A stretch of 64,000 nt of DNA from NCBI GenBank assembly GCA_030533085.1, contig JAUNJZ010000001.1:24814-88813 (forward strand), given 5' to 3'. Shown piece after piece: positions 19,273 through 62,090 of this stretch. The stretch's first letter is position 1, and every line of letters begins with the position of its first letter. This stretch comes from Synergistaceae bacterium. GTDB taxonomy: Bacteria > Synergistota > Synergistia > Synergistales > Synergistaceae. A program made the translations under genes and the position numbers. Under the pieces are notes generated by a model. That model was not told where the DNA came from, made no database searches, and was given only the letters and a program-made list of their open reading frames with translations.

Positions 19273-19478
19273 TATTCACACTCCTGATCCTTCATTCGCC
19301 TATAATTTTAACACCAGCCGCGAAATTTTTATATCGGCGCTTCGCTTTTGCCGCGGAGTCAATAATAAGCCGCCGCCGCTTTTCGCGCTTCCGTTAAAAG
19401 ATAGGGGGCGCTTTGCCGGAAATTAAGATATAATCAGTAGCTGAAACGGCAATGCCGGCGAACGATGGAGGTACTGTT

Positions 19479-25911: not shown

Positions 25912-26625
25912 ATGGCGCTTATGAAATTCGACGGGGTAAGCTTTGACTGGCAGGCACTGCTTGACAATTCACGGAAAGGCGGCCGGCGGAGAAAAATCTC
26001 AGATGATATGGCCGGCGCGGCCAGGCGCGCTTATGATGAAGGGGTAAAGGTTCTTGAGATGCGCGCGGTAATGGAAATATACAAAAAAGAGGCGGATGAC
26101 GACGAGGGGATAACTCTTTCTCTCCCGGATGGGGCTTCGGAGAGGATCTATATCGGCCCGAGAGTCGGCTATCTGTTCCCCGCCCATGAGACGGCCGTGC
26201 TTCTGTGCAGCGTCGGAGAGCCGCTTGTAACGCTCATGCGCGATTACGCCGCCGCTGGAGATCATCTGATGATGTATTATCTCGACGTGCTTGGGGTGAG
26301 GGCGCTCGCGGAGGTTTCTGCCAGAATGCGCGCGCATGTAGAGTCAGCGGCAAAGGAAAAGGGCTGGGGCGTCGGCCCTTCGATGCAGCCCGGCTCTGTG
26401 GAGGGGTGGGGGGTGCAGGGACAGCGCGACCTCTATCGCCTTGCGCACGGCGAAAGGATAGGGCTGGCTCTCAACGAAGCCTCTTTCCTCATTCCGCATA
26501 TTTCAGACTCCGCCATAATCGGAATGGGGCCGCATTATTCCGAGAGCAGGGTCGGCTCTATGTGTCACGAATGTCACAGAAGAGATAAATGCCTCTGGCG
26601 GCGCGAAAACGTCAAAGAAGCTTAA
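25912..26625 (+). CDS. methionine-synthase (MetH) activation-domain-like protein with C-terminal Cys cluster
   Basis: GDHLMMYYLDVLGVRALAEV...GWGVGPSMQPGSVEGWGVQGQRDLYRL...IGLALNEASFLIPHISDSAIIGMG follows the Met_synt_B12 pattern (D..G..., SPG, W..Q..LF, IG..L.ES, P.KS). The tail is CHECHRRDKC. Starts 16 nt after the hydantoinase-like gene. Confidence 0.55.
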   Translation: MALMKFDGVSFDWQALLDNSRKGGRRRKISDDMAGAARRAYDEGVKVLEMRAVMEIYKKEADDDEGITLSLPDGASERIYIGPRVGYLFPAHETAVLLCSVGEPLVTLMRDYAAAGDHLMMYYLDVLGVRALAEVSARMRAHVESAAKEKGWGVGPSMQPGSVEGWGVQGQRDLYRLAHGERIGLALNEASFLIPHISDSAIIGMGPHYSESRVGSMCHECHRRDKCLWRRENVKEA

Positions 26626-26691: not shown

Positions 26692-27459
26692 TCAGCCGCG
26701 GCGTCTCTGTCTGACTGCCTCCGCGTCGCCTGGCGTCATTATGTGACAGCCGCCGAGCTGGTAGTAGAGGCATTTTCTGCCTGTGCAGGGCTTGCATGGT
26801 TCCATTTTAATCTCCGTCTCATATTCCGACGAGCCAAGGAGGATAAGAGAACACTGCGATTTTCGCGGGTGGAGCAGCGAGCTTCCGCTTGCCCTCACGC
26901 CAATCAGCCGTTCCGTATCTCCGAGCGAGACGACCTTTTCTATTAGATCCTGCCTCATGCTTCCCGTGCCGGGGTAAAATTCGCCGTTGATATACTTACC
27001 CATCGCGCGCGCGGGGCCGCTTTTCAGCCACTCGGTCATCCTCCGGTGCATGTTGTAGAGCGAGATAGAGCCGGCCACGTCAAGCAGCAGCCCGGTCATC
27101 ATATCATTCAGCGACGAGGTCATTTCTGTACATTTTGCCTCAAGCGCAGGGCCGATTGTCCACACCGCCATCGCCGCCGTTTCAACTGATTTGTTGCTCC
27201 GCGGCAGCTCCGCTCCGAAGTTCTCGGCGGCAACCGAGAAGGGCATGGTCATAACGCGCGCCGTCGGAGAGAGCAGCTTTTCATAGCCTTCGCTCTGCCA
27301 GTATTTCATGAATATCTCAAAGTTTTCCCTGTGCCTTGCTCCAAGTGATTCGTAGTGGCCGCTCAGCGCCGATAGGTCAACGCTCATCGGGGCCTCCTCG
27401 CAGCGTGCCGCCCCATCGCTTGCCCCATATTCAGAGAAGATTATATTGATGCTTTTCAT
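26692..27459 (-). CDS. second MetH activation-domain-like protein with C-terminal Cys cluster
   Basis: LLLDVAGSISLYNMHRRM...YPGTGSMRQDLIEKVVSL...IGVRASGSSLLHPRKSQCSLILLG shows the same pattern. The tail is CKPCTGRKCLYYQLGGC. ATG 27459 has a GGGGGAG RBS and lies 20 nt after the RACo stop. Confidence 0.5.
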   Translation of the reverse strand: MKSINIIFSEYGASDGAARCEEAPMSVDLSALSGHYESLGARHRENFEIFMKYWQSEGYEKLLSPTARVMTMPFSVAAENFGAELPRSNKSVETAAMAVWTIGPALEAKCTEMTSSLNDMMTGLLLDVAGSISLYNMHRRMTEWLKSGPARAMGKYINGEFYPGTGSMRQDLIEKVVSLGDTERLIGVRASGSSLLHPRKSQCSLILLGSSEYETEIKMEPCKPCTGRKCLYYQLGGCHIMTPGDAEAVRQRRRG

Positions 27460-27479
27460 TCTGCCCACTCCCCCTTGGC

Positions 27480-29093
27480 TCAAAGGGCCATCGCCGAAAC
27501 AAATCTCTCTTGAAAATCCGGCAGAGATGACAGCTCGATATATCTCATCTTCTCCGCCGTCCTTTTCGTCCTCTCGTAGAAGTCGGCGGAGGCAAGGGCG
27601 AGAGAGGCGCCAAGTCCTGAAGAATTTTTGACGCTGCGTATCTTATTCCGGTCAATATCCGGTATCAGCCCTATAGCGGCGGCGCTCTCCATATTGATGT
27701 TGTTGCCGAAAGCTCCGGCAAGGCAGACTTCCGACAGTTCGTCCGCGCTTATCCCGGCCTCTTCAAGCATCACTCCGATGCCGACCTTGACCGCTCCGGC
27801 GGCCAGCTGTACTTCGCGGATATCTTTCTGCGTGAGGTAGACGGGATTGTCCCCGTCTGTCAGTAGAAGTTGGGTCATGCCTTTGTCGTTTCGCCCCAGC
27901 CTCTCCCTGAAACGCGGATCCGCGCAACTCTCCGGCTTTATAAATCTGCCGCCGGAGTTTATGAGCCCTTCGCGGAGCGCGAGAGCGACCGCGTCTATCA
28001 GCCCGGAACCGCAGAGGCCAATGGGCTTTGCTCCACCGATAGTGGAATATCTCAATTCGCCCTCTTCAATAAAGAGCCTGTCTATCGCGCCTGTACTGGC
28101 GCGCATCCCGTATTGTATCCTCGCCCCCTCGAAGGCCGGTCCCGCCGCCGTGGCGCAGCAGTAAAGCCCCTTCGCGCCGCCGATCACTATTTCATTGTTG
28201 GTGCCGATATCTACCAGCATTTTTATCCCCTCTGTCTCGTCGATTCCCAGCGCGGCCACTCCCGCTGCGATGTCCGCTCCGACGTAGCCCGCGACGTTGG
28301 GGAGCAGCTTTATAAGGCCATTTTTCGCTATGTTGATGCCTGCCTCCGACGCGCGGAAGGGCGGAAGGCTGAGAAACTGCGGCCTGTAGGGGCTGCGGCC
28401 GATGCTTTCAGGAGAGACGCCGGCGAAGATATGCTCCATCACTGTATTGCCGGCCACGGTTATCTCGCTTATCTTTTCCTTTTCTATACCCTCGCGCTCC
28501 GCAAGCAGCCCTATTTTCTCGTCCATCTCATCCGAGAGCGTTCGCCGTATTTTTTCAAGAGCCTCTGCGGCAGAGGAGGCGTATGCGATACGCGAGATGA
28601 CGTCGTCTCCGAAGACCACCTGCGGGTTGAGAAATGAGATTCGGCCGGCCTCGCGGCGGGAATCAAGGTCAAGGAGGTAGCAGACGACGGTGGTTGTGCC
28701 TATATCTACAGATACGCCGTAACCCTCCGCGCATGGCGCCCAGCCCGCTATTGATTCGGAAAATCCTTCGAGTATGCTGTGTCCGGCTGATTCCACTCCG
28801 TCTATGACTGTTACTTCACCGTCCCGTTCCACAGCGGCGCAGCAGGAGAGGCGGATCCCGTCGTTTCTATCCTGATTGCTGAGAATCTTTCGCTCTGTTT
28901 CATTCAGCGCAGAGAGCGGATCCTTCCCTCTTTCGGTTCGGACTCTGCATTTGCCGCAGACGCCCGCGCCGCCGCAATGGCGTCCGATGGCGACATTGAC
29001 GGAAGCCGCCGCGTCGGAGAGAAGCGTTCCCCTGGGCACGACGGCGGTTACCCCGACGGGGAGGAAAATGACGACGCACTTTTCGTTCTCCAT
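27480..29093 (-). CDS. corrinoid reductive activase (RACo/RamA-like): 2Fe-2S ferredoxin domain + ASKHA ATPase (DUF4445-type)
   Basis: N-terminal plant-type ferredoxin GRHCGGAGVCGKCRV...RLSCC, then actin-like ATPase motifs VSVDIGTTTV and LVDIGTNNEI. Probable start is Met19 (29093). Confidence 0.8.
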   Translation of the reverse strand: MENEKCVVIFLPVGVTAVVPRGTLLSDAAASVNVAIGRHCGGAGVCGKCRVRTERGKDPLSALNETERKILSNQDRNDGIRLSCCAAVERDGEVTVIDGVESAGHSILEGFSESIAGWAPCAEGYGVSVDIGTTTVVCYLLDLDSRREAGRISFLNPQVVFGDDVISRIAYASSAAEALEKIRRTLSDEMDEKIGLLAEREGIEKEKISEITVAGNTVMEHIFAGVSPESIGRSPYRPQFLSLPPFRASEAGINIAKNGLIKLLPNVAGYVGADIAAGVAALGIDETEGIKMLVDIGTNNEIVIGGAKGLYCCATAAGPAFEGARIQYGMRASTGAIDRLFIEEGELRYSTIGGAKPIGLCGSGLIDAVALALREGLINSGGRFIKPESCADPRFRERLGRNDKGMTQLLLTDGDNPVYLTQKDIREVQLAAGAVKVGIGVMLEEAGISADELSEVCLAGAFGNNINMESAAAIGLIPDIDRNKIRSVKNSSGLGASLALASADFYERTKRTAEKMRYIELSSLPDFQERFVSAMAL

Positions 29094-29309
29094 TATTGAC
29101 CGCTCCTTTATTTCACTCTGCCTAACAATCATATTTTCCCAGATCAACGCGCATCAGGCAAGAATTTTTCCCGCCGCTTGCGCGCGCAGTCCATAGCCGC
29201 ACATAATAGAATACCAGCCCGCCGCGAGCAGCTCACGGCAGGCTGGTCAGACAAAGAAGAATAGAGAGAGAGTGAATATCGGCTCCGGCTCCTGCCGCCC
29301 TGCCGAGGA

Positions 29310-30346
29310 GCCGCGTTATTTCCCCCGCTCGTTGTAGAATTCGTCTGCCGCTTCAAAGAAGGCCGTGATGTTCTCCCAGGGCGACATGGCGGGGATGTCG
29401 CAGCCGGAGGAGATGACGAAGTTCGGATACTGGCAGCATTCGCCCATGATTCTCTTTGTTTCGGCCTTCATCGTCTCCGGCGTACCGCTGTAGAAATAGT
29501 CGGAGGGGCTGACATTGCCCATCACCAGCTTGTCTTTCGGCATCAGTTCGAGCATCTCCCTCAGACTTATCGAGTTGCCGAAGTGGAAGGCGGCAGAGCC
29601 GGTGCGCGCTATCGATTCAGTCATCTTAATCGCGCTCCCGCCGCAGTTGTGATAGATCACTATGAAGTTATCGTCCTGCACAGCTTCCACTATCTCGCGC
29701 ACATAGCTCTCGGAGAATTTCACCGCCAGACGCGGAGAGAGAAGCCCGGTAAGCGGCTCCGCCATCACTATGCCGTTCGCGCCGACAGCCTTATAGGCCT
29801 TCGCGTACTCCACAAGGAAATCTGTTGACTTCCTGAGCACGGCCTTCATCATATCGGGCTTTTCTATGCAGTTTACAAGAGCCTCCGCTACGCCGACGAG
29901 ACGTCCGGCGAGCGAGAAGGGGCCTATTACTCCCGCGAATACAGGCCTGTCGGTGATCAGCTCGCAGGCTTTGCCGAGAGCTTCGATATATCTGCCTGTG
30001 CGCGCGGTTCCTACCGGGGGCACAGCCAGAGCCTCTGCCTCCTCGATACTGTTTACGACGGAGCCTACCACAGTGGGCACGTCCTCATCGGAGATATGTA
30101 CCGTAGAGCCGAAAGCCTCAGCTTCAACGGAGAGATCCATCATGCTTACCGATGCCAGGGAATCTATCTTGTCCGCGACCATCTTCATTCCCTTTGCCTG
30201 CAAGCCGCTGTCGCTTATCAGCTCGCGCACGGTTATCCCCATCAGAGTGACGCAGGGGAATGAGAGCACGGGCATCGCCTTTTTGCGCGGAGCGGCCTTG
30301 ATCTCTTCGAGCCAATTGTTCATGTTCATTGGTAACACCTTTCCTT
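29310..30346. repeat. copy A of a 1,037-bp direct repeat (partner at 40313..41349)
   Basis: Co-linear with copy B at a constant offset of 11,003 bp. I saw only about five substitutions. Both-strand ORF translations are identical over hundreds of residues. The repeat spans the stop flank, the CDS and the RBS only. Confidence 0.9.
29316..30329 (-). CDS. uroporphyrinogen-decarboxylase-family methylcobamide methyltransferase (MtaA/MtbA-like MT2), copy 1
   Basis: URO-D-like fold. The candidate Zn site is IVIYHNCGG (H-x-C-G) plus ISSGCDIP. Likely start is MNMNNW (30329), with a GGAAAGG RBS shared by copy 2. Confidence 0.75.
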   Translation of the reverse strand: MNMNNWLEEIKAAPRKKAMPVLSFPCVTLMGITVRELISDSGLQAKGMKMVADKIDSLASVSMMDLSVEAEAFGSTVHISDEDVPTVVGSVVNSIEEAEALAVPPVGTARTGRYIEALGKACELITDRPVFAGVIGPFSLAGRLVGVAEALVNCIEKPDMMKAVLRKSTDFLVEYAKAYKAVGANGIVMAEPLTGLLSPRLAVKFSESYVREIVEAVQDDNFIVIYHNCGGSAIKMTESIARTGSAAFHFGNSISLREMLELMPKDKLVMGNVSPSDYFYSGTPETMKAETKRIMGECCQYPNFVISSGCDIPAMSPWENITAFFEAADEFYNERGK

Positions 30347-30482
30347 TGTTTAAAATATCTTTCATTTGCCCCGTATCACTTTATTAACTGAGAAAAAGCC
30401 TTAAAGGATATAGGACTGATCCTTAATCTAGCTCTTATCTAATTAGACTAGCACTGTCAAATCGATACAGTTTCAGCCATTT

Positions 30483-32879
30483 CTATCCACAGCTGGCGCA
30501 GCTGCCTTCGCGCTGCACCGTGCGCGCGATTATGTCGTCCTGCACTTCCTTGCCAAGCTCTACGAAGAAGGCCGTGTAGCCCGCCACGCGCACGAGCAGG
30601 TTGCGGTATTCTTCCGGGTGCGCCTGCGCCTCAAGAAGCTTTTTCTGATCCACTACGTTGAATTGCACATGGTAGACGCCGAGCGAGCAGAGGGTGCGCA
30701 GCATCGCCATTATCTGGCGTATGCCGTTTTCGCTGTTTGCCATTTGCGGGTCGAGCTTCATGTTGAGCAATGTACCCTGTACGAAGCGGTCGTGCGGAAT
30801 GTTGGCGACTGATTTCAGCACTGCCGTGGGGCCGTTGACGTCTGTCCCGCCGTTTGGGCTGACTCCGTCGGCAAGGGGCTTGCCCGCGCGCCTTCCCGAG
30901 GGCAGAGCGCCGACTTCTACGCCGAAGGGGGTGTTGCCGGAGACCGGCAGGATGCCGGGGGTCATTACTCCGAATTTGCTGCGGTAGCTTTCTATTTCGT
31001 CGGCGATGTAGGCGAAGAGTTCCGCCGCGAGGCTGTCCGCGTATTGGTCGTCGTTGCCGTATTTGGGGGCTTCTTTGCAGGCTTTGAGGATTTCAGGCGC
31101 GTCCTCGAAGTCGGAGGCGAGGGCCGCGAGCAGCTGTTTCATGCTGACGCTTTTTGTGTCGTAGACGAGATGTTTGACTGCGGCTACGCTGTTGATGAGG
31201 TCTGATACGCCGATGCAGATGATCCCGTTGCCGGTGTTGTATTTAGCGCCGCCCCAGGCGTAGTCTTTCGCGTTTTCGATGCATTCCTCAAAGCTGACGG
31301 AGAGGGCGGGGACGGGGCGTCCCATGCATATTTCGTCTATTATGTGGCTGGCTTTGACGACTACTTTGATGACGTAGCGGAGCTGAGCTTTGACTGCGTT
31401 CAGGAAGTCGCCGAATGTCGCGAAGCTGGCGGGGTCGCCTGTCTGCGCTCCGGCAAGCGCGCCGGTTTTGCGGCATTTGCCGTTCAGCAGCACGAATTCC
31501 ATTACGCTGCCGAGGTTTATGTCTGCAAGGGCGGAGTAGGCGCGCAGTTTGCCGGCAAGGTTGGTCTCGACGCAGCCTCCGGGGTTCCAGTCAAGCGCTT
31601 CGCGCAGAGGGATGCCTTTGTTCATCAGCATACGTATGCCCACTTCGTCGTTATGGAAGGCGGGGAAGCCCGTGCCCATTACCATAAGCTCTACTATTTT
31701 GCGCAGGAAGGAGTTTGGATTTTTCGCCATGTTGTAGCGCACCGAGAGCGATGGCTGGTAGAGCTGTGTGTCCATTGTGGCCTGTATTATCATGTAGGAG
31801 AGGTCGTTTACCGCGTCGCGTCCCATTTTGTCCACGCCGCCGGCGCAGAGGTTCTGGAACATCGGGTAGCCGGAGGCATATTCTGCGGATTTGGCGTCCT
31901 GAAAGAGGCACTGTTCGGAGAATTTTACCCAGAGGCAGTCAAAGAGCTCCTGCGCCTCTTCGGGGGTGATGCGTCCGGCTTCCAGGTCGGCCTTGTAGTA
32001 GGGATAGAGATACTGGTCCATGCGTCCGGGGTTGTAGGCGGCGGCGTTTTGTTCCATGAAGATGCTTATCTGGTAGAAGTAGAAGGACTGCATGGCTTCG
32101 CGGAAGCTGCGCGCGGGATATGCCGGAACGCGGCGGCAGACTTGCGCTATCTCAAGCAGCTCCGCTTTGCGGCGCGGCTCTTGCTCCTTTGCGGCAAGAC
32201 GCTCCGCCTCGATGGCGTAACGTTCGGCCAGAGTCTCCAGCCCTTCGCAGACTGTCAGAAGCGCGTCGAGATAGACTTCCTTTTCGTAATCTCCGGGAAC
32301 TGTGGCGTCAAGCTTTGCCTTACGCTCAAGAATTCTCTTGCGCAGCCCCTCGACGCCGTTATTTATGAACCACTCGTAGCCGGCCGTGACCTCGCCCCAG
32401 CCGCGCACTGCCTTCTTGTCGATATAAAGCGCGCCGTTGTCGCGCAGAGCGGCCACATCCGCAGGTATACGCGCGAGCCATTCTTCGTAATTTGAGCGCC
32501 CCTTCCAGTAGGGACGGATCATCTCTTCAAAATCCTTTTTGTCCTCCGGCAGAAGCCTGAACTTGTCATATTCGCGGGTATTGATAGTATCAAGCTCGCG
32601 GTCGAGCACCGACCAGCAGACATCCGCGGAGAGTATACCGCCGCGTATCTTGCTGCCGGAATTTCCTACGATCAGCTCGTCGTCCCATATCTTAACGCTC
32701 TTTTCACGGCACTGCTTCAGAAAAGCCTTGGCCTTGCGCGTGACAAGCGCCTCCCCCTGAGTCTCAAGAAAGCTCTGCGTCAGCAGCTTCGCGTCCTCAA
32801 GGTCTATCTCCGGATATGTCTCAAAGAGCTTCGATTTCAACCTTTCCACTCGTTCCAGATATTTTGGCTGGTTTTCCAT
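30483..32879 (-). CDS. glycyl radical enzyme, PFL2/dehydratase-lyase clade, substrate unknown
   Basis: 798 aa from ATG 32879 (AAGGAGGGG RBS). The glycyl radical motif LLVRVAGYTAFFVELGKEVQDDIIART is near the C-terminus. The Cys loop is WNPGGCVETN. The N-terminal region is typical of CutC/HypD/GDH-type enzymes. Confidence 0.9.
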   Translation of the reverse strand: MENQPKYLERVERLKSKLFETYPEIDLEDAKLLTQSFLETQGEALVTRKAKAFLKQCREKSVKIWDDELIVGNSGSKIRGGILSADVCWSVLDRELDTINTREYDKFRLLPEDKKDFEEMIRPYWKGRSNYEEWLARIPADVAALRDNGALYIDKKAVRGWGEVTAGYEWFINNGVEGLRKRILERKAKLDATVPGDYEKEVYLDALLTVCEGLETLAERYAIEAERLAAKEQEPRRKAELLEIAQVCRRVPAYPARSFREAMQSFYFYQISIFMEQNAAAYNPGRMDQYLYPYYKADLEAGRITPEEAQELFDCLWVKFSEQCLFQDAKSAEYASGYPMFQNLCAGGVDKMGRDAVNDLSYMIIQATMDTQLYQPSLSVRYNMAKNPNSFLRKIVELMVMGTGFPAFHNDEVGIRMLMNKGIPLREALDWNPGGCVETNLAGKLRAYSALADINLGSVMEFVLLNGKCRKTGALAGAQTGDPASFATFGDFLNAVKAQLRYVIKVVVKASHIIDEICMGRPVPALSVSFEECIENAKDYAWGGAKYNTGNGIICIGVSDLINSVAAVKHLVYDTKSVSMKQLLAALASDFEDAPEILKACKEAPKYGNDDQYADSLAAELFAYIADEIESYRSKFGVMTPGILPVSGNTPFGVEVGALPSGRRAGKPLADGVSPNGGTDVNGPTAVLKSVANIPHDRFVQGTLLNMKLDPQMANSENGIRQIMAMLRTLCSLGVYHVQFNVVDQKKLLEAQAHPEEYRNLLVRVAGYTAFFVELGKEVQDDIIARTVQREGSCASCG

Positions 32880-32971
32880 TGTATGCCCCTCCTTTGTAAA
32901 CTGGTTTTGTACCAGAACACGGCGTTTTGCCGTAGAAATCATTTAATCGCAATATCACATAAGATATACAA

Positions 32972-34276
32972 TTACATATTACCTATGACATAGTTTGGAA
33001 GCCATAGCGCCAGCTCTGGAAAGTACGTAACGGCCATTAGCGTAGGGATCCAGGCAAAGAATAAAAATTTCAGTGTGGTCGGGAGCATCTCGGCTACTTT
33101 TACTTTCATCACTCCAGCGCCAAAATAAAGACATGGCGCAGTTGGCGGAGAAAGCAGGCCTATACCGATATTCACGCCGATAATCGCCGCAAAATGTATG
33201 GGGTCAACGCCAAATTCCTGCAAGATCGGGATAAATATCGGCGAGCATAGCAAAATAGCGCTGGTATCGTCCATAATCATACCTATTATCAATAATATTA
33301 TATTCGTTCCCAACAGTATGATATATTTGTTATCTGACAGGTTTTTGAGTGCGCTGGTAATCATTCCAGGCAGATCTTCCATTATGTATATGCGGCTCAA
33401 CATCATGATACAAAAAATCATCACCATGATTACGCCTGTACTTGCCGCTGTTTCTATTAACGTTTCATAGAGGTTTTTAAAAGTAAGCTTTTTATATACG
33501 AAAAAACCTACAGGTATCGTATAAATAACAGCGACAGCCGCAGCTTCGGTAGGTGTGAAAAAGCCGCTGTATATACCACCAAGGACAATGAACGGCATGG
33601 TCAGCGCTGGAACAGCAGACACTGTTCTGTTCTTCGCCATTTCCAGGAACTCAGAATAGCTCATCTTTTCCCTGCTTTTAATATTCTTGTCGTTTCTAAG
33701 AATAAAGTAGCTGGTAACAGAAAGCAGAAACACCAGCAAAAGGCCAGGTCCTACTGTGGCAAGGAAGCATGCCAACAACGACTGCCGTCCCGCCCATGAA
33801 TACAACACCATGTGCGCGCTGGGCGGTATCAATAGCCCAAGCGGAGCCGCACAAGTGACAAGAGCTGCGGCAAAGCCTTTGTCGTATCCGGCCTCCTCAA
33901 ATCTCGGTTTCATGATCGAACCGATACAAGACAAGGTTGCCAGACTGCTGCCGGCAATAGAACCAAACGCGGCGCTGGCAACCACCGCAACTACTGCAAG
34001 GCCGCATTTTATTCTACCCACAAAGATATCAACAAACTCGACAAGAGTTTTTCCAATACCGCTTTGGTTCATTAATGAACCTACCGCGATAAAGAGCGGT
34101 ACGCAAAGCAAGACGAGAGAATTTACAACTCCATAGCCATATGTCAGCAGAAAACTTGTCTTGTATCCCAAAGTAACAACCAGAAACAACGCCGCGGCCA
34201 AAAATGCGTACTGTATATACATCCCAAGCAACAGGCCGGCGATTATCATCAATATAGCAATAAATATGAATGTCAT
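32972..34276 (-). CDS. TRAP transporter large permease (DctM family)
   Basis: 434-aa polytopic membrane protein, directly downstream of the DctQ-like and DctP-like genes. Confidence 0.85.
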   Translation of the reverse strand: MTFIFIAILMIIAGLLLGMYIQYAFLAAALFLVVTLGYKTSFLLTYGYGVVNSLVLLCVPLFIAVGSLMNQSGIGKTLVEFVDIFVGRIKCGLAVVAVVASAAFGSIAGSSLATLSCIGSIMKPRFEEAGYDKGFAAALVTCAAPLGLLIPPSAHMVLYSWAGRQSLLACFLATVGPGLLLVFLLSVTSYFILRNDKNIKSREKMSYSEFLEMAKNRTVSAVPALTMPFIVLGGIYSGFFTPTEAAAVAVIYTIPVGFFVYKKLTFKNLYETLIETAASTGVIMVMIFCIMMLSRIYIMEDLPGMITSALKNLSDNKYIILLGTNIILLIIGMIMDDTSAILLCSPIFIPILQEFGVDPIHFAAIIGVNIGIGLLSPPTAPCLYFGAGVMKVKVAEMLPTTLKFLFFAWIPTLMAVTYFPELALWLPNYVIGNM

Positions 34277-34282
34277 CTGCCG

Positions 34283-34813
34283 TTATCCTTTCCTTGTCAG
34301 TGCAACCAGATGGTTGTAATCTCTAATCGTATAAACGGTTAGATAGAGGGCCGTTATTACGAAAGACAACAAAATCGCAGTCTGAGGAATGAAATATGGA
34401 ATATTCCACAATGATGTTACCGTCCATGTTTCTATTGACCTTGCCACCATATTATATGCCAGTACGACAAAAATAAAGTTTATGGAAGTTTGCAGTATCC
34501 CTGCTGCAAGCTTTGCCACAGCCAACAGCTTTTCCCCCATCATCGTCGCCAGGATATCCGCCTTAATATGTTCTTCCTTACTCATTGCATATGCCGCACC
34601 AATGAAATACATCCAGAAAGAATCAACAAGCACTATCTCGTCATATCCGTATAGATCCGCGTGAAGTACATATCTCGCCAGCACAACCGCTCCCAGTATG
34701 ACCAGCATCAAAACTGTAGTGAGGAACATGATGAATCTCTGTACCTTAAGTAAAGACTTCCAAATTTCAGAGTCCATGATGCTGTTTATAAATTGTATCT
34801 CTCTCACTTTCAA
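34283..34813 (-). CDS. TRAP transporter small permease (DctQ family)
   Basis: 176 aa with four hydrophobic segments. Lies between the DctP and DctM homologs. Start uncertain. Confidence 0.75.
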   Translation of the reverse strand: MKVREIQFINSIMDSEIWKSLLKVQRFIMFLTTVLMLVILGAVVLARYVLHADLYGYDEIVLVDSFWMYFIGAAYAMSKEEHIKADILATMMGEKLLAVAKLAAGILQTSINFIFVVLAYNMVARSIETWTVTSLWNIPYFIPQTAILLSFVITALYLTVYTIRDYNHLVALTRKG

Positions 34814-34893
34814 TTCACTCCCTTCGCTTTTTTACATAAGGGCATGCCATACAAGCATGCCCTTATGTATCAACGTAATTGTGCTTACAGTTT

Positions 34894-35922
34894 TTACTTT
34901 CCCGGTTTCGTAGCCGCGACCTGTTTGTCAAGAGCTTCAAGGAATTCTTTTCCAAACACGTCGTTGTATTTCGGCCATATCTTTTTACGAAGCTCACTAT
35001 GTAGTTTATAATAATCGTCGTCGGTATATTCGTTAATCTCTATGCCATAATCCTTAAGCAGCCTTGTAAACTCCACTTCTTTTTCTTCCATCAGGGTAAG
35101 AGTTTTCTGCGCCCAGCTTTTGAAAACATCGGAAACAATCTGCTGTTCCTCTGGAGAGAACGAGGCCCAAAGCTCCTCATTACAGATTATCCACGTAGGT
35201 GGGCAGTGAAATCTATTGTAGTCGATATATTTTATGATATCCTTGCCGACAAGCCATGACGTTTCAAGCGTTTGTCCGGTAGCGCCGTCCACCTGACCTG
35301 TCTGCATCGCGTTCCAAACCTCTGACAGATCCATTGTCAGCGTCTGATATCCCATCGCAACAGTGCTGTCTCTGTAGAGTGGCATTCCTGGAACACGGAG
35401 GCTCAGCTTTTTATTTTCAAAACCACTGAAGGATTCAGGGCGTTTTCCTTTCGCGAAAACAAAGCAAGCGTACGGTTCCGGCCAACCGCCGATACTTTTG
35501 ACCTTTATATCTTTTAAGACTTCGTCCATCTTTTTTGCAATCAGCGAGTCTTCTGCAAAACAGATCTCCGCATACTGTTTATACCCCATAGGAGCGTATG
35601 CCGGAAGATTGAGCAAGTCCAAACGAGGGTCATATTTCTTTGTGGGCCATGTCGCGCCGAACTCAATAGTACCCTGTCTGACTTCTTCAATCACATCTTC
35701 GTAACTTCCAAGCTGGCCGCCAGGAAAAATTTTTATCGAGATTTTGCCGTCTGTCTCATTTTTTATCTGCTCTGCGGCAGAAACCAATCCCTGTGTAATA
35801 TAACTTTCAGCAACGTACGGAGCATACATCTTCAACGTTCTAGCTTCAGCAACCCCGCTAGCAACAAACAGACCAAATAACGCACAAATAGATATTATTT
35901 TTACAAAACTTTGCTTTTTCAT
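34894..35922 (-). CDS. TRAP transporter substrate-binding protein (DctP family)
   Basis: 342 aa. Signal peptide MKKQSFVKIISICALFGLFVASGVAEA, with a DctP-like periplasmic-binding-protein body. Confidence 0.8.
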   Translation of the reverse strand: MKKQSFVKIISICALFGLFVASGVAEARTLKMYAPYVAESYITQGLVSAAEQIKNETDGKISIKIFPGGQLGSYEDVIEEVRQGTIEFGATWPTKKYDPRLDLLNLPAYAPMGYKQYAEICFAEDSLIAKKMDEVLKDIKVKSIGGWPEPYACFVFAKGKRPESFSGFENKKLSLRVPGMPLYRDSTVAMGYQTLTMDLSEVWNAMQTGQVDGATGQTLETSWLVGKDIIKYIDYNRFHCPPTWIICNEELWASFSPEEQQIVSDVFKSWAQKTLTLMEEKEVEFTRLLKDYGIEINEYTDDDYYKLHSELRKKIWPKYNDVFGKEFLEALDKQVAATKPGK

Positions 35923-36072: not shown

Positions 36073-36714
36073 TTACGCAACCCTTAAAAGTCTTTTCGCA
36101 GCTTCAACTGCTGAGCTCGCGTCCTCCGAATAAACCGCGCCTATTTTTTCGGCATACATGGGCGAAGTAGGCGCTCCTCCAATCATTACCTTTGTTGAAT
36201 CACTGAGTCCTTCCTCTTTGAGTACGTCGATTACCTCCTTCATTTTTGCCATCGTTGTGGTAAGCATTGCCGACATCCCCAATATGTCAGGTGAATACTC
36301 TTTCACCTTTTCAGCAATCTGGGCAGCCTGAACATCAATGCCTATGTTAATAACCTCAAAACCCGCGCCTTCCAGCATCATCCCCACAAGCTTTATGCCG
36401 ATGTCATGCAGATCGCCCTCGACAGTTACCGTTAGGATTCTGCCTTTTCTCTCAACTCCTTCCTCTACCAGTAGATTGCGGATGACGTCGATGCCGCCCT
36501 GCAACGCTTTCGCAGACACTAGAACCTCCGGGACAAACATTTCCCCATCCTTGAAAAGCTCTCCAACTTCATTCATCCCAACGATCAAGCCGTCATTAAG
36601 AATTTTCCCCGCGGATACGCCTCCCTCCACAGCTTCCTGAACATATGCAGTTGTCTGTTTCACATTGCCCTCTAGAACCGCTTCAGCAATATTCCTAAGT
36701 ATTTCTTCACTCAT
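36073..36714 (-). CDS. corrinoid (cobalamin-binding) protein 1, MtbC/MttC/MtgC-like
   Basis: B12-binding DxHxxG motif in TVEGDLHDIGIKLVGMMLEGAGFEVINIG, plus SAMLTTTM and MIGGAP. Confidence 0.9.
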   Translation of the reverse strand: MSEEILRNIAEAVLEGNVKQTTAYVQEAVEGGVSAGKILNDGLIVGMNEVGELFKDGEMFVPEVLVSAKALQGGIDVIRNLLVEEGVERKGRILTVTVEGDLHDIGIKLVGMMLEGAGFEVINIGIDVQAAQIAEKVKEYSPDILGMSAMLTTTMAKMKEVIDVLKEEGLSDSTKVMIGGAPTSPMYAEKIGAVYSEDASSAVEAAKRLLRVA

Positions 36715-36746: not shown

Positions 36747-38270
36747 CTAGTTTCTTATTATCTTTTCCATCGCTGATTCCGCATCAACGGGAACGTCAAT
36801 CGGTTTATATTTGGCCATCAGCTTATTTTTCTTAGCGATTGCGTTGTTAATCACATTCGTATCCAGATGTTTCTTTTCGCCTTTGACTGCGGAGCAATCA
36901 AAGATCGTACGGGTCCACAACTCTTTTCTAAAATGTGTGAGCGTATGGTCCGTACTGATAAAATCACCGCGCGGTCCCACTCTGTTGATGAGGTCAAAGC
37001 CTTCGGAAGACATATCGACAGTGATTCCGTCTTTTATCCTTTTAACATAATTTGCGACTTCCGAAGCGAGGATAAGAGTTTCGGCGCTGACGGCGTTCAT
37101 CCCTGCCAGAAGCCCCATCCCCTGAGCCATATTTATTCCGCTGAGAGCCGGTAAAAGGCTTGTTGCACACTGTTCTGCCCCGAGCTGATGATCCAGGGCT
37201 AAAGAGTCAGAGAGATTAGAGCCGCCGCCAGTCGGAAGGTTGTAGTGTTTCCCCATTTGCGTAGTCGCAATACGAAGCATACTAAACTCCGGCCCTCCGA
37301 CGCTGACATTTCCGTTTTTCATATTAATCACTCGCGCCCAGCTGGCGTAAATTACAGGTGCGGAAGACTTTACAAGCTTTGCCAGAACGATACTGCTTAA
37401 AAGTTCAGCGTTTGCTATTGCAACGGTTTCAGCAAGGGTTACTGGAGATGTTGCCCCGGCCATCGGCCCCGACTCGACAAAGAGCGGGATTCCATATCTT
37501 GCCGATTCAATAATAAGCTGCATAGAATCGCTGCGGTGATGGAGCGGACTTGTCAGTGTAACAAGAAATGAAAAAAACGGTGTTTTTTTAAGATTTTCCT
37601 CTCCGCCGGCGATATATTCCGCCATCTTTATTATCTTTCGCGCGTTGACAAGATCCTTGGCCTGGGCTTCGATATGCTTCGACGTATAAAGCATGCCGGC
37701 TTTGAATTCATATAAATCAGCGTATTCAGGCTCAACGTCTGTTGCTCCTACGCTGGGCAGGATATAATCAGGCGGATCGAGGATATCGCAGAGTTTCATG
37801 ACATCAATAACATCCTTGCTTGTAGACTGACGGTATTCACCGCTTTCGAAATCAAGATAGTTTGTGGCGAATCCTGTAGTTCCAAAATACAGGTTGTCAC
37901 CGCCTACATGGAGACTCCGGCGACCGCAGCGCCCATGAAGCTCCACCACTGGAATAGAGGCTTCTATTGCCTCATTGATAATTTTTTCTGTAAGAAAAAC
38001 TCTTGTTTTTCCATCAATTCTTGCTCCGGCATCTGCAAAGATTGAAATAGCCTCTTCATCCTCGCAAATAAAACCAACCTTTTCCAGAACATCCCGCGAT
38101 AATCTGTCAATATACCGGATCTCTTCGTTGCTCAAAATCTTAATGTCAGGCTTCAACGATACCAGCTCCTTATGTAAGTAATGTTGCAATGAAAAATTTG
38201 TATTATATATAGCCTTGCAATGAAACGTTTTCTTTATTCTATCAAAACTTTTATCCTTGTCAATATGCAT
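36747..38270 (-). CDS. MttB-superfamily methyltransferase 1 (no in-frame amber codon, so non-pyrrolysine)
   Basis: 507-aa uninterrupted ORF. The N-terminal pattern LSNEEIRYIDRLSRDVLEKVGF and overall length are typical of trimethylamine-methyltransferase-family proteins. Adjacent to a corrinoid protein. Confidence 0.85.
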   Translation of the reverse strand: MHIDKDKSFDRIKKTFHCKAIYNTNFSLQHYLHKELVSLKPDIKILSNEEIRYIDRLSRDVLEKVGFICEDEEAISIFADAGARIDGKTRVFLTEKIINEAIEASIPVVELHGRCGRRSLHVGGDNLYFGTTGFATNYLDFESGEYRQSTSKDVIDVMKLCDILDPPDYILPSVGATDVEPEYADLYEFKAGMLYTSKHIEAQAKDLVNARKIIKMAEYIAGGEENLKKTPFFSFLVTLTSPLHHRSDSMQLIIESARYGIPLFVESGPMAGATSPVTLAETVAIANAELLSSIVLAKLVKSSAPVIYASWARVINMKNGNVSVGGPEFSMLRIATTQMGKHYNLPTGGGSNLSDSLALDHQLGAEQCATSLLPALSGINMAQGMGLLAGMNAVSAETLILASEVANYVKRIKDGITVDMSSEGFDLINRVGPRGDFISTDHTLTHFRKELWTRTIFDCSAVKGEKKHLDTNVINNAIAKKNKLMAKYKPIDVPVDAESAMEKIIRN

Positions 38271-38666: not shown

Positions 38667-39542
38667 TCAATCAAGTTTTAAAGTAAAATCATAGTCTTTA
38701 AACTCAAACATATCAGATGAAACAATCAATGATTCATATTTTTTTAACCGCTGTTTGATATTTGTTTTGTCTTTTTTATACATCTCGATGAGCATTGCAT
38801 GTACCAAAGTAAGAGCAGACGAGGCCGGCTCGACAAATAATATATATTTTAGCGGCGTTATCAGATTCTGAGATGCATATTTCAATATTGGAGAAGCATG
38901 ACTGTCCGTTACGGCCAAAATAGGTATATTTAAATTATATAATGTCTCTGCTATCTTCAGAACTTCTTTAGGATATCTGGGATAACTGAATACTACCGCT
39001 ACAGTTTTATTGCTCAACAACTCCAGTTTTCCATAAAATCTCATATTCCTTTGATGAACGACACTGACTTTCTCCTTAAAAAAGCTAAGATAATCAGCAA
39101 AGTATTCTGTAATGTAATGTTGCGTCGGTCCGCCAACTAAAACTATATTATCCGCTTCCATCAACGTTTCAACAAACCTGTCAAAATCGGCGGGATCGAT
39201 TGACGCCAAAGACTCATCCAATAGATTTTTTTCTAACATGAATATGTCCTGATATGTAGGGAAATCAGAGCCACACGGCACAATCTGCCTGAACGGATCA
39301 TATTGGTTTGGTTTTTGCACCTGTTTTCTAAGATCCAACTGGAAATCAGAAAAACTATTATAGCCAATCGCATAAACAAAGCGGGTTAGCGTTGCTTCGC
39401 TCACACCTACGTTTTTAGCAATCTTGGAGGCATTCATCAAAGCGACATCATATATATGTTCGCATATATATTCTCCAATAGCGACCTGTTTGTTTGTGAG
39501 ATTGGGCGTTGCCTGCATAATTTTTTCGTTGATTGTTGCCAT
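38667..39542 (-). CDS. MurR/RpiR-family transcriptional regulator (HTH_6 + SIS domain)
   Basis: N-terminal HTH: LTNKQVAIGEYICEHIYDVALMNASKIAKNVGVSEATLTRFVYAIGYNSFSDFQ. C-terminal SIS-like region: NIVLVGGPTQH. Confidence 0.85.
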   Translation of the reverse strand: MATINEKIMQATPNLTNKQVAIGEYICEHIYDVALMNASKIAKNVGVSEATLTRFVYAIGYNSFSDFQLDLRKQVQKPNQYDPFRQIVPCGSDFPTYQDIFMLEKNLLDESLASIDPADFDRFVETLMEADNIVLVGGPTQHYITEYFADYLSFFKEKVSVVHQRNMRFYGKLELLSNKTVAVVFSYPRYPKEVLKIAETLYNLNIPILAVTDSHASPILKYASQNLITPLKYILFVEPASSALTLVHAMLIEMYKKDKTNIKQRLKKYESLIVSSDMFEFKDYDFTLKLD

Positions 39543-40242
39543 AAGAATCCCCTCACTGTAGACGCTGAAATCAGTTCTGGATTCAGGCTGGTATTTCCCG
39601 GCCCGATCCGCCTCACATAATTAACCAGACAGTCTGTATATTAAATCAACATCAGCAAAACCGCCAATGTTTTATCCAGGTTTCTCCTGCATAAAAATAT
39701 GCGCTGAACGGGTATATACAACAAGCCGCTCCGCGCATATACAAATCCATGCTTACGAAGATAGACCGTCGCCCCATGCCCATCGCATTAGCTAACTGCC
39801 GCGTTTTCGCGAGGTCTTCTGGCTTTTGGCCGTTCCCTGGCGTCTGCCTTCCCATCATGAGTCATAAACGACAGTGGCTGATGCGACCCAGCGTGCAGAA
39901 TATCTACCATATTCCACATGACCAATTACAGTAGCGAGGCTGCTTCGGACTTTCACCGATATTGTCTCACTTCAAAAACGCTAACTAAACAAAGACAAAA
40001 AACATCTCTGTCTTAAATTACGGTATCACATTTCTATAAAAAACGCAATATAGGAAATATTATTAACAGATTTACAATTTAAATGCAGCATGGCGTGCCT
40101 TTTCTCCGCACGCTGTTCTTTCGATCTGCATATTATTTGGGTGAAAGCACTGATATACAGTTGCTTCACTGTTTATCTCCGTAAATGGCAATCAACACTG
40201 CCGCCGCTCTGAATCACGATACAGACTGTGCTTTTGCAACAA

Positions 40243-40312: not shown

Positions 40313-41349
40313 GCCGCGTTATTTCCCCTGCTCGTTGTAGAATTCGTCTGCCGCTTCAAAGAAGGCCATGATGTTCTCCCAGGGCGACATGGCGGGTATG
40401 TCGCAGCCGGAGGAGATGACGAAGTTCGGATACTGGCAGCATTCGCCCATGATTCTCTTTGTTTCGGCCTTCATCGTCTCCGGCGTACCGCTGTAGAAAT
40501 AGTCGGAGGGGCTGACATTGCCCATCACCAGCTTGTCTTTCGGCATCAGTTCGAGCATCTCCCTCAGACTTATCGAGTTGCCGAAGTGGAAGGCGGCAGA
40601 GCCGGTGCGCGCTATCGATTCAGTCATCTTAATCGCGCTCCCGCCGCAGTTGTGATAGATCACTATGAAGTTATCGTCCTGCACAGCTTCCACTATCTCG
40701 CGCACATAGCTCTCGGAGAATTTCACCGCCAGACGCGGAGAGAGAAGCCCGGTAAGCGGCTCCGCCATCACTATGCCGTTCGCGCCGACAGCCTTATAGG
40801 CCTTCGCGTACTCCACAAGGAAATCTGTTGACTTCCTGAGCACGGCCTTCATCATATCGGGCTTTTCTATGCAGTTTACAAGAGCCTCCGCTACGCCGAC
40901 GAGACGTCCGGCGAGCGAGAAGGGGCCTATTACTCCCGCGAATACAGGCCTGTCGGTGATCAGCTCGCAGGCTTTGCCGAGAGCTTCGATATATCTGCCT
41001 GTGCGCGCGGTTCCTACCGGGGGCACAGCCAGAGCCTCTGCCTCCTCGATACTGTTTACGACGGAGCCTACCACAGTGGGCACGTCCTCATCGGAGATAT
41101 GTACCGTAGAGCCGAAAGCCTCAGCTTCAACGGAGAGATCCATCATGCTTACCGATGCCAGGGAATCTATCTTGTCCGCGACCATCTTCATTCCCTTTGC
41201 CTGCAAGCCGCTGTCGCTTATCAGCTCGCGCACGGTTATCCCCATCAGAGTGACGCAGGGGAATGAGAGCACGGGCATCGCCTTTTTACGCGGAGCGGCC
41301 TTGATCTCTTCGAGCCAGTTGTTCATGTTCATTGGTAACACCTTTCCTT
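40313..41349. repeat. copy B of the 1,037-bp direct repeat (partner at 29310..30346)
   Basis: See copy A. The two proteins differ at two residues near the C-terminus (T/M and R/Q). Confidence 0.9.
40319..41332 (-). CDS. uroporphyrinogen-decarboxylase-family methylcobamide methyltransferase (MtaA/MtbA-like MT2), copy 2
   Basis: Identical to copy 1 except ENIMAFF...NEQGK versus ENITAFF...NERGK. Confidence 0.75.
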   Translation of the reverse strand: MNMNNWLEEIKAAPRKKAMPVLSFPCVTLMGITVRELISDSGLQAKGMKMVADKIDSLASVSMMDLSVEAEAFGSTVHISDEDVPTVVGSVVNSIEEAEALAVPPVGTARTGRYIEALGKACELITDRPVFAGVIGPFSLAGRLVGVAEALVNCIEKPDMMKAVLRKSTDFLVEYAKAYKAVGANGIVMAEPLTGLLSPRLAVKFSESYVREIVEAVQDDNFIVIYHNCGGSAIKMTESIARTGSAAFHFGNSISLREMLELMPKDKLVMGNVSPSDYFYSGTPETMKAETKRIMGECCQYPNFVISSGCDIPAMSPWENIMAFFEAADEFYNEQGK

Positions 41350-41477: not shown

Positions 41478-43004
41478 TTATTGAGAATCCCCGCCGCTTT
41501 TCTTCCCTCTCATTTCCTCGCTCATCGCCTTCACGAGCGCCCACGCCATGAAGATGGTCATTATTGAATATGGGAAGGATATGACCCCCGCCAGCTTCTG
41601 GATACCGCGGAAATCGCCGGCAAAGAGCGTGATGGCGGAGATGACGGCCATCATTCCCCAGATGAAAAGCCTTCTCTTCGTTGTAGGGTTGATATCTCCG
41701 TTGCTTGAGAGCATTCCGACAACAAAGGTGCCTGAGTTTGCCGAGGTTACGAGGAAGGTCGCCACCAGTATGAAGCATACGATGGTCGTGATCGAGGAGA
41801 GCGGGAACATCGCCATAAGATCCCAGAGCGCCATTGACATGTTATTGACAGAGGAGTCCGCCAGGGCGCAGGTCGGATTTTTCATTACAGCGGAGATGGC
41901 CGTGCTTCCGAAAATCGTCATCCAGGCAAAGCTTCCGAGAGGAGGAATGATAAGCGACCCCATTACAAGCTCTCTCATGCTTCTTCCGTAGGATACGCGG
42001 GCGAAGAATACGCCGCAGAACGGCCCCCATGAAAGCCACCAGAGCCAGTAAAGCACAGTCCAGCCGCGCTGCCAGACGTCGAAATCCGGATCCCACGGGC
42101 TGACGCGCAGCGTCCAGTCCGGCAGATTCGCGACATAGGCGCCGAGAGACGTTACAAATGTCTGCAATATGCCGAGCGTTGGGCCAAAGAGGAAGAGGAA
42201 GCCGCAGATCAGTATCGACAGATAGACGTTGATATCCGCTATGACCTTTATTCCCTTTTTCAGCCCCGCGACCGCCGTTATAATATATACGACGGACATC
42301 AGCCCCAGCGAAATCTCCGCAAACCATATGCTGTTGGGGATGTTGAAAAAACGCGCGATCCCGGCGCCCATCTGTGAGGAGGCGATTCCCAGAGAAGAGG
42401 CTATTCCGGCCACAGTCACGAATACCATCCATGAATCCACAAAATGCGAGCAGTGCAGCGCAACCCTTTCATTCTTGAAGAGCGGCTCGACAAAGTTGCC
42501 CAGAAGCACGGGCCTGTTCTTCCTCATGCTGAAGTAGCCTATAACCATTGCTGTAATGCCGTAAATTCCCCACGGATGCACTCCCCAGTGCAGGAAGCTC
42601 AGCTGCATTGAGAGATCCGCCGCCTGCGGCGAGAAGGTGGCGATCCCGGGAGGAGGAGCTATAAAATGATATGCAGGCTCCGCCGCTCCGAAGAAGACGA
42701 GCCCGCTGCCCATGCCGGCGGAAAAGAGCATCGCCAGCCATGAAAAGGTGCTGAATTCCGGCTCTGAATCATCCGGGCCGAGTTTGATTTTGCCATACTT
42801 GGAGCAGGCAATATATATCATGAACAGTATATAAAATGTGAGCACCGAGACAAGATACCAGTTGAAATACTGGCAGATCCAGTCGAAAATTGCCGTCATG
42901 GTGCTTCCGAAAAGCTCGTTGTGGACAAGACCGAATACTATCAGTATAAGAGTAAGCCCTACTGAGCCGTAAAATACTGTATTATCATTTTCCTTTTGGC
43001 GCAT
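41478..43004 (-). CDS. BCCT-family (betaine/carnitine/choline) transporter
   Basis: 508 aa with 12 hydrophobic segments. The family signature region is WTVLYWLWWLSWGPFCGVFFARVSYGRSMRELV. Confidence 0.9.
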   Translation of the reverse strand: MRQKENDNTVFYGSVGLTLILIVFGLVHNELFGSTMTAIFDWICQYFNWYLVSVLTFYILFMIYIACSKYGKIKLGPDDSEPEFSTFSWLAMLFSAGMGSGLVFFGAAEPAYHFIAPPPGIATFSPQAADLSMQLSFLHWGVHPWGIYGITAMVIGYFSMRKNRPVLLGNFVEPLFKNERVALHCSHFVDSWMVFVTVAGIASSLGIASSQMGAGIARFFNIPNSIWFAEISLGLMSVVYIITAVAGLKKGIKVIADINVYLSILICGFLFLFGPTLGILQTFVTSLGAYVANLPDWTLRVSPWDPDFDVWQRGWTVLYWLWWLSWGPFCGVFFARVSYGRSMRELVMGSLIIPPLGSFAWMTIFGSTAISAVMKNPTCALADSSVNNMSMALWDLMAMFPLSSITTIVCFILVATFLVTSANSGTFVVGMLSSNGDINPTTKRRLFIWGMMAVISAITLFAGDFRGIQKLAGVISFPYSIMTIFMAWALVKAMSEEMRGKKSGGDSQ

Positions 43005-43050
43005 CCCCCAAACACCCCTCCTAAATAAATTTTGTTAAAATACTGCGAAC

Positions 43051-43103
43051 GAAAAAATCACGGGCGGCATTTCCCGCGCCCATCATGGAATGCCGCCGCC
43101 CGT
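43051..43103 (-). terminator. strong intra-operon hairpin with T-run between MttB-2 and the BCCT gene (terminator or attenuator)
   Basis: On the minus strand: ACGGGCGGCGGCATTC-(13 nt)-GGAAATGCCGCCCGT, followed by GATTTTTTCG. Confidence 0.55.
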
Positions 43104-43116
43104 AAAGCTTCAGCTC

Positions 43117-44613: not shown

Positions 44614-44672
44614 AATATTCCCTCCCGCTCGTAACAATCAAAAATCCATCTCCACAGCCGCGAAGCGAAAAG

Positions 44673-45314: not shown

Positions 45315-45629
45315 CCCGCATTCCCCCTGTATGGTATTTTGTCGTTCGTCAGGTAAAATTGCCGCACAATACAACAGCAGACATCTTTTCGCGATAAATG
45401 TCCAATAAAATATTCTCCCGCTCTTTACCCCGCCGGCCCTCAGATATAAGCTGAATTTACAAAACCGTCCGTTTTAAAGAGCTTAATATTACGCCTTGCA
45501 ACTTTACTTTGATTCACTATAAGAAGTGTACACTTTTGTCCATGTTAATGTCTATTGAGAAAATCGTGAAAGGGATTGTGCAAAATCGTTAAAAGCAGCT
45601 GCTGAAGAATTGGAAATAATATCTCACAA

Positions 45630-61616: not shown

Positions 61617-61640
61617 GTATAACGACCTCCGAACATATAT

Positions 61641-61950: not shown

Positions 61951-62090
61951 ATTATAAAAAACACATCGGGGAAACGCTCTCCCCTTACGCGCTAAATTAT
62001 CACGTCTTCTTTTCGTTGTCAATCAAAATATTTTCCGTTATCCGGCGTTTTTTTGCCGTTATCGCTTATGTTTTCCCCCGGCAAAAAGTA

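Follow-up and report, generated by a model that had tools for sequence, protein, structure and literature searches.

The closest described relatives of the gene analyzed here are the glycyl radical enzymes (GREs) HpyG and HpzG, whose structures (8ID1 and 8IOF, respectively) are both reportedly from Jiang et al., ACS Catal 2024. The gene encodes a GRE on the minus strand of a 64-kb stretch of DNA from a draft Synergistaceae genome; we refer to the whole stretch as the window and to the enzyme as the window GRE. The functions of HpyG and HpzG are taken as given in PMC13450708. Two further GREs serve for comparison: HypD (6VXC/6VXE), a trans-4-hydroxy-L-proline dehydratase, and the choline trimethylamine-lyase CutC, which is normally paired with CutD. 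For the genes that surround the window GRE, the closest described systems are the quaternary-amine systems of Eubacterium limosum, in which MtpB, MtcB, MtyB or MthB works with MtqC, MtqA, and RamQ (PMC12155760, PMC8604678). The general scheme for MttB-family proteins without pyrrolysine comprises a substrate:corrinoid methyltransferase, a corrinoid protein, a methylcorrinoid:tetrahydrofolate methyltransferase, and an ATP-dependent activator (MtxB, MtqC, MtqA, and RamQ; PMC12155760).

We consider it probable that the window GRE is a functional HpyG-family 1,2-eliminase, a duplicate of a GRE on another contig of the same genome (C20), which was placed between dctM and a URO-D-family methyltransferase gene in a foreign island of MttB and TRAP importer genes. 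The enzyme family has been known since 2024; the informative part is its operon context. Three features define the gene and its duplication:

30483..32879, minus strand: GRE of the HpyG family, Synergistaceae subclade, 798 amino acids (aa), recognized from the open reading frame (ORF), Pfam, PDB match, and tree
30470..32894, minus strand: gene-sized duplicated tract, 2425 bp, 99.92% identical to G000:C20:26782-29206 (blastn)
30470..30480, minus strand: activase gene remnant ATGGCTGAAAC, the first 11 nt of the activase gene 3' of the C20 twin

Family placement of the window GRE

The uninterrupted ORF on the minus strand spans 30483..32942 (819 aa), and the plus-strand translation of 30483-32879 is broken by many stops. 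Translation likely starts at M22 of this longest ORF, at 32879, giving the 798-aa product, and AAGGAGG stands eight bases 5' of that start codon as the gene's own ribosome-binding site. The protein matches the Pfam models PFL-like (PF02901, 653 bits) and, at its C terminus, Gly_radical (PF01228, 108 bits). Its Gly loop, LLVRVAGYTAFFVELGKEVQDDIIAR / RVAGYTAFFVELGKEVQDDIIAR, contains RVAGY and satisfies the GRE fingerprint RVxG[FWY]x6-8[FL]x4Qx2[IV]x2R (PMC13450708). Its Cys loop, NPGGCVETN, carries a CXE motif, with GCVE at residues 435-438 of 798, and by this motif the enzyme belongs to the 1,2-eliminase (CXE) group of GREs. An earlier note on this DNA, written from the sequence alone, had recognized a GRE with RVAGY and GCVE at these coordinates and had assigned it to a dehydratase-type clade; the Pfam matches, the motifs, and the intact minus-strand ORF agree with the former, and the CXE motif with the latter. 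A candidate for a further GRE in the window, the 832-aa ORF at 6130-8628, was set aside because it reads by eye as a class I aminoacyl-tRNA synthetase, probably leucyl-tRNA synthetase.

The earlier note had also held that the substrate cannot be read from the sequence by eye, with which we agree, and had named several characterized GREs for comparison (CutC, HypD, and HpsG among them). The window GRE matches none of these, with NCBIfam equivalog scores that are far too low: 664.5 for CutC (cut-off 1050), 621.8 for HpsG (cut-off 1000), and 611.3 for HypD (cut-off 1100). It is also far under the equivalog cut-offs of HpfG, PFL, and the indoleacetate and hydroxyphenylacetate decarboxylases, and the sole NCBIfam model that it passes is the broad TIGR01774 (PFL2/glycerol-dehydratase subfamily), at 682.6 against 678.2. 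The nearest characterized enzyme is HpyG: the best PDB matches are 8ID1 at 1173 bits and then 8IOF at 878 bits, and the identities are 63.7% to HpyG, 49.9% to HpzG, and 33% to the genome's own HypD equivalog, which lies with its activase on contig C71. A tree of 88 sequences, whose long branches call for caution, separates HpyG from HpzG and puts the window GRE on the side of HpyG, with HpzG branching outside. Within the HpyG-like group it belongs to a strongly supported clade of 21 Synergistaceae members, sister to the branch that holds 8ID1.

For the substrate pocket, we mapped the HypD pocket residues (PMC7077986) through the HypD equivalog on C71. We take the alignment to be valid because it reproduces the Cys435/Glu437 numbering of HpyG in PMC13450708. 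At 13 of the 16 positions that correspond to the HypD pocket, the window GRE has the residue of HpyG; R158, E162, Q326, D452, C435, and E437 are among these matches, and all charged or polar positions are counted with them. A comparison of pocket residues had been proposed in the earlier note; it yields close agreement with HpyG and falls short of identity, given the three remaining positions, which are taken up below. Sequence comparison thus places the window GRE securely in the HpyG family (N-methyl-4-hydroxyproline dehydratases).

The window GRE resembles HpyG in full-length homology, in the GCVE Cys loop (Cys435/Glu437 of HpyG correspond to Cys436/Glu438 here), and in the RVAGYTA Gly loop. 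It differs in its separate, well-supported Synergistaceae subclade, in those three pocket positions, in a 12-residue Cys-Gly tail, and in having no adjoining activase. With HpzG it has the family and the CXE and Gly loops in common; HpzG lies outside the HpyG-like clade and has T340 and E452 where HpyG and the window GRE both have Phe and Asp. The fold is shared with HypD, as, by prediction, is the dehydration of a 4-hydroxyproline ring, whereas the catalytic His160, Asp278, and Asp339 of HypD are Glu, Ala, and Met in the window GRE. CutC is likewise a GRE eliminase that acts on an amine and has CXE and RVAGY motifs; unlike the window GRE, it is normally accompanied by its activase and has no link to methyl transfer.

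The missing activase and the origin of the gene

The genome is a 76-contig draft of 2.63 Mb, and the window lies on contig C23 (155,892 bp). Whole-genome profile searches found six activases above the TIGR02494 cut-off, all on contigs other than C23, and no match above cut-off to TIGR02494 or Radical_SAM inside the window. Among the 254 window ORFs of 60 aa or longer, a CxxxCxxC motif occurs only in a ferredoxin-nitroreductase fusion (18445-19272). This gene also gives a weak TIGR02494 match, which we rejected because the gene encodes such a fusion and not an activase. The Radical_SAM search returned two genes on C23, both outside the window (C23:94837 and C23:131830); neither reached E<=0.001 against TIGR02494, and both were dismissed as GRE activases. 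When all six activases of the genome were searched against the entire contig by tblastn, the matches were ferredoxin-like or otherwise weak and short, and nothing activase-like was found. The earlier note had reported that no ORF in the window encodes an activase, which profile, motif, and tblastn searches all bear out, and had named an activase just beyond the window as the finding that would end the gene's orphan status; there is none anywhere on C23. The genome-wide count that it proposed comes to seven GREs and six activases, with the window GRE as the sole unpaired enzyme and each other GRE adjoining an activase.

That an activase is nearly always adjacent, as the earlier note had stated, also holds for this clade. 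Among 80 metagenome loci of the clade, of which 73 were informative, an activase starts <1 kb downstream of the GRE in 72, so its absence beside the window GRE is exceptional for the clade. The single exception, L051 (Ga0153940_1000198), reads activase, GRE, GRE, and then unrelated genes, with the upstream activase of the cassette kept.

The earlier note had treated the orphan GRE as an unexplained oddity, and this does not stand, since the gene has a twin that adjoins an activase. The GRE at 26797-29193 on C20 is identical to the window GRE in protein sequence. The duplicated tract extends from the ribosome-binding site to 13 nt beyond the stop codon, and its two copies differ by two synonymous changes, in codons 5 and 13. 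On C20, a 311-aa activase (TIGR02494 304.9 bits, cut-off 174.35) begins two bases after the stop codon of the twin. When C20 29171-29260 is aligned to the window, the homology past the stop codon reads AA-ATGGCTGAAAC and then ends abruptly. Because the identity runs into the start of the activase gene, the window copy derives from a locus where a GRE gene adjoined an activase gene, and the latter was not carried over. Read in this way, the missing activase would have an ordinary cause, namely duplication of the GRE gene without the activase gene, which remained at the parental site.

The parental locus is a cassette (G000:C20:23627-30131) that encodes an activase (253 aa), a GRE (793 aa), the twin GRE, and the 311-aa activase. 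The same activase-GRE-GRE-activase order occurs in Cloacibacillus sp. (L016), Synergistes jonesii (L017-L020), and loci L037, L040, and L121; as judged from these sequences, the cassette is conserved across Synergistaceae. Because relatives share the cassette, we regard C20 as the ancestral home of the gene, and we rejected a swap of flanks between the C20 and C23 copies. The window GRE is thus a recent, or recently homogenized, gene-sized duplicate of the second GRE of this cassette. The first GRE of the cassette has no characterized close relative; its best match is a B12-independent glycerol dehydratase, at 639 bits.

The operon and the low-GC island

The window GRE lies in a minus-strand series of genes in the order riboswitch, RpiR regulator, MttB, corrinoid protein, DctP, DctQ, DctM, GRE, URO-D, RACo, and a 263-aa protein. 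An older operon precedes this series, and its last gene is a second copy of the URO-D gene. The features, all on the minus strand, are:

41478-45374: second quaternary-amine operon, with a second corrinoid protein (44673-45374), a second MttB (43117-44637, 294 bits), and a BCCT transporter (41478-43004)
40313..41349: URO-D copy B, the last gene of the older operon, which has native guanine-plus-cytosine (GC) content
39791..40009: cobalamin riboswitch aptamer, 5' of the RpiR gene (Rfam RF00174, 41.8 bits; gathering score 31.5)
39671-39648: terminator-like hairpin after the riboswitch aptamer
38667..39542: RpiR-family regulator (HTH_6 and SIS domains, Pfam), GC 36.6%
36747..38270: MttB-family methyltransferase of the non-pyrrolysine kind (Pfam MTTB PF06253, 268 bits; no in-frame TAG)
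36073..36714: corrinoid protein (B12-binding_2 PF02607 and B12-binding PF02310, from Pfam; DLHDIG motif in the sequence)
34894-35922: TRAP importer DctP (Pfam)
34283-34813: TRAP importer DctQ (by position and homology to called DctQ genes in related loci)
32972-34276: TRAP importer DctM (Pfam)
29316..30365: URO-D/MtaA-family methyltransferase, copy A (Pfam URO-D PF01208, 167 bits)
27480..29147: RACo-type ATP-dependent reductive activator of corrinoid proteins (Fer2 and the RACo middle and C-terminal domains, Pfam)
26692..27483: 263-aa protein with a Cys-rich C terminus and no Pfam hit, which adjoins RACo in relatives L028 and L029

A cobalamin riboswitch placed before a pathway that uses B12 would be oddly positioned if it were an OFF switch. 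A LuxR-type two-component pair (45715-47593) precedes the operon of the second MttB and the BCCT transporter. The 263-aa protein has no NCBIfam hit either.

The window encodes, on one strand, the full set expected for a non-pyrrolysine MttB system (MttB, corrinoid protein, URO-D, and RACo). By analogy with described systems, URO-D copy A may be of the methylcorrinoid:tetrahydrofolate methyltransferase type. The true start of the window MttB is probably about 37 codons further in, because its homologues are about 470 aa long. No named close homologue of this protein was found in the homologue search, and PDB searches with the window MttB and with DctP yielded no informative ligand and, for DctP, no informative relative. 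The four-part logic is that of the E. limosum systems, from which the window operon differs by the addition of a TRAP importer and of a GRE that would consume the demethylated product, and by the cobalamin riboswitch before its regulator gene. The gaps beside the GRE are 92 nt to dctM and 117 nt to URO-D, with no terminator-like site in either, and a blast search with these short low-GC gaps found no source for them elsewhere.

Base composition divides the operon. From RpiR through DctM, GC is 37-48% and GC at third codon positions (GC3) is 37-49% (TRAP genes, 32972..35922, GC 41-45%), compared with a genome average of 55.0%. The window GRE has a GC of 57.5% and a GC3 of 73%, and URO-D and RACo are likewise near the genome average. 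The RpiR-DctM segment is therefore compositionally foreign. The two URO-D copies form a direct repeat of 1037 bp (29310-30346 and 40313-41349) with five mismatches near its ends and a perfect center of about 890 bp; together with the GRE copy, this repeat brackets the low-GC island. In the resulting picture, a low-GC island entered a resident methyltransferase operon and was complemented there by copies of the native GRE and URO-D genes, a clear example of operon building in which a native gene copy is pasted into a horizontally acquired island.

Comparable joins occur in relatives. Locus L032, whose MttB is the closest relative of the window MttB (86% identical), has the order RpiR-MttB-corrinoid protein-DctPQM-URO-D, followed by the start of a GRE at the contig end. 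The contig stops nine codons into this gene (MEKQPQYLK), an N terminus shared with a 91%-identical cassette orthologue. Locus L042 has the order DctM-URO-D-GRE (90%)-activase, with a GC mosaic like that of the window (40-47%, then 57-59%). Comparable MttB/TRAP or TRAP/URO-D modules have thus become linked to this GRE along different routes in no fewer than three related lineages, which argues for functional coupling and against an artifact. Among relatives sampled at one genome per genus the window operon was not seen, and a scan of genome contigs with the window MttB returned only a 62% relative, without a GRE.

The genome also has a paralogous cluster on contig C17 (G000:C17:49570-58007) that encodes TRAP DctPQM, a GRE (795 aa), an activase, RpiR, and a ProC-like gene, the reductase label of which comes from reading the sequence by eye. 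Its DctM is 70% identical to that of the window and its DctP only 39%. Over 19 compared residues, the Gly loop of its GRE differs from that of the window GRE by one. This cluster is probably the true HpyG-type locus of the genome, and as such would illustrate the layout of a stand-alone N-methyl-hydroxyproline locus in the same genome.

Proposed role and alternative explanations

We modeled the proposed chemistry of the window GRE on that described for HpyG, HpzG, and HypD; the substrate, co-transcription, and activation in trans that follow are predictions from gene content and homology. The TRAP importer would take up a quaternary amine that bears a carboxylate, most probably a betaine of 4-hydroxyproline. 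MttB would move one methyl group to the corrinoid protein, URO-D would hand the methyl group to tetrahydrofolate, and RACo would re-reduce oxidized cobalt. The GRE would then dehydrate the leftover N-methyl-4-hydroxyproline to N-methyl-pyrroline-5-carboxylate. Its glycyl radical would be installed in trans by the activase that adjoins the C20 twin; because the window GRE is identical to the neighbor of this activase, trans-activation should pose no specificity problem. The C17 activase could possibly serve the window GRE too, given that the Gly loop of the C17 GRE is almost identical. If this reading is right, the operon ties a non-pyrrolysine MttB and a TRAP importer to an HpyG-family dehydratase and suggests an anaerobic breakdown of hydroxyproline betaine in gut and digester Synergistaceae. 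It would also provide an example from nature of a single activase that has to act on a GRE whose gene lies at another locus.

Several observations weigh against this reading. In the tree, the characterized HpyG pairs with the C17 paralogue and not with the window GRE (SH-aLRT 95, long branches), and because the window GRE lies outside the subclade of HpyG, the isomer or even the substrate may differ. The three pocket-equivalent positions at which it departs from HpyG are R154K, S334A with a neighboring A335S swap, and A640P, and the Ser at the S334 position is essential in HypD (PMC7077986). The nearest structure to the window MttB, MtgB (2QNE), scores only 199 bits, and the window operon has no gene like pyrroline-5-carboxylate reductase. 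The C20 activase is under a different regulator (GntR-type), so trans-activation would need its separate expression. S. jonesii and more distant relatives carry the MttB-TRAP module without a GRE. The position of all mismatches near the repeat ends could reflect assembly collapse, in which case the two copies may in truth be less alike than they appear.

We entertain as a tentative possibility that the Synergistaceae GRE clade represents a third specificity in the HpyG/HpzG family, for example for N-methyl-trans-4-hydroxy-L-proline, the product of betonicine demethylation. The suspicion of a different substrate arises mainly from the C17 paralogue, which pairs with HpyG in the tree and is accompanied by a TRAP importer, activase, and reductase of its own. 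If the clade does have a third specificity, the MttB-corrinoid-TRAP-GRE operon would amount to an anaerobic pathway for a hydroxyproline betaine that is complete, and that arose more than once as a mobile low-GC island of methyltransferase and importer genes became linked to a resident GRE.

Returning to the reading of the window GRE as a functional duplicate, we weighed whether it might instead be a silent or redundant spare copy that is heading for decay, with all activity coming from the C20 cassette. The lack of an activase in cis, the activase already available to the C20 twin, and the apparent youth of the duplicate, with its two synonymous differences, would all fit such a copy. Since the ORF is intact and has its own ribosome-binding site, the gene stands in line in the operon with no terminator-like site on either side, and the comparable joins in two related lineages argue for selection, we judge a spare copy to be unlikely. 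A different concern is that the arrangement stems from the assembly, either as a diverged paralogue whose near-identity to the twin reflects repeat collapse or polishing, or as a chimeric contig joined through the GRE or URO-D sequence. The GRE and URO-D repeats have seven mismatches between them, each no more than 85 nt from a repeat end, as if only variants near the unique flanks had been phased; gene conversion and assembly collapse fit this clustering equally well. The draft state of the genome also leaves room for an error of this kind, and an exact search for the 3' junction of the GRE in JGI metagenome contigs gave no match. Yet the four flanks are all distinct and unique, which requires two copies, and the C20 layout is that of the relatives, which rules out a simple swap of flanks. 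The independent assemblies L032 and L042 show a like low-GC MttB/TRAP-GRE join, and a chimera of two organisms would not give a GRE and URO-D of native GC beside an island that is not. We therefore consider an assembly effect quite improbable.

The C terminus of the window GRE suggests another explanation, in which a Cys-rich tail confers a special property (metal or cluster binding, redox protection of the radical domain, or activase docking) that offsets the missing activase. The protein ends ...IIARTVQREGSCASCG, and the 12 residues beyond IIAR, TVQREGSCASCG, close in Cys-Gly, whereas the characterized HpyG has just four residues past ARTAH. The earlier note was right that the extra tail is real; it is not peculiar to the window GRE, being a trait of the Synergistaceae branch. 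A Cys falls within the final three positions in 57 of the 71 cluster representatives at 75-91% identity, and 43 of the 71 end in CG, whereas a second Cys (CxxC) occurs in just 12; at 70-74% identity, a terminal Cys occurs in none of 46. The C17 paralogue also ends in Cys (...QKAC). The codons for the terminal Cys-Gly and the spacing to the activase gene vary among orthologues, so the dipeptide is conserved at the protein level and is not a mere by-product of the activase ribosome-binding site. Nor does the terminal Cys track a downstream activase: Cys-less orthologues that end ...VSSG keep theirs, although the GRE of L051, the sole other locus of the clade without a downstream activase, also lacks the Cys (...SSG). 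The activase-paired twin has the identical tail, so the tail is not an adaptation to orphanhood. In an AlphaFold model (mean pLDDT 76.9), of the kind that the earlier note had proposed, the tail has a pLDDT of <50 and is modeled as disordered. Radical formation without an activase is known for no GRE (PMC13450708). A compensating role for the tail is, on this evidence, very improbable.

A few further features of the window lie apart from the GRE. A second, stronger cobalamin riboswitch (61728-61954, minus strand, 65.3 bits) stands 5' of a 667-aa ORF (59613-61616), and contig C13 carries a 78-80% paralogue of the region 61083-61960. The plus-strand gene at 25912-26625 has no Pfam or NCBIfam hit and encodes a Cys-rich C terminus; a relative of it lies near an MttB-TRAP module in locus L030. 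A 523-aa protein encoded on the plus strand at 19452-21023 has a full serpin domain (379 bits).

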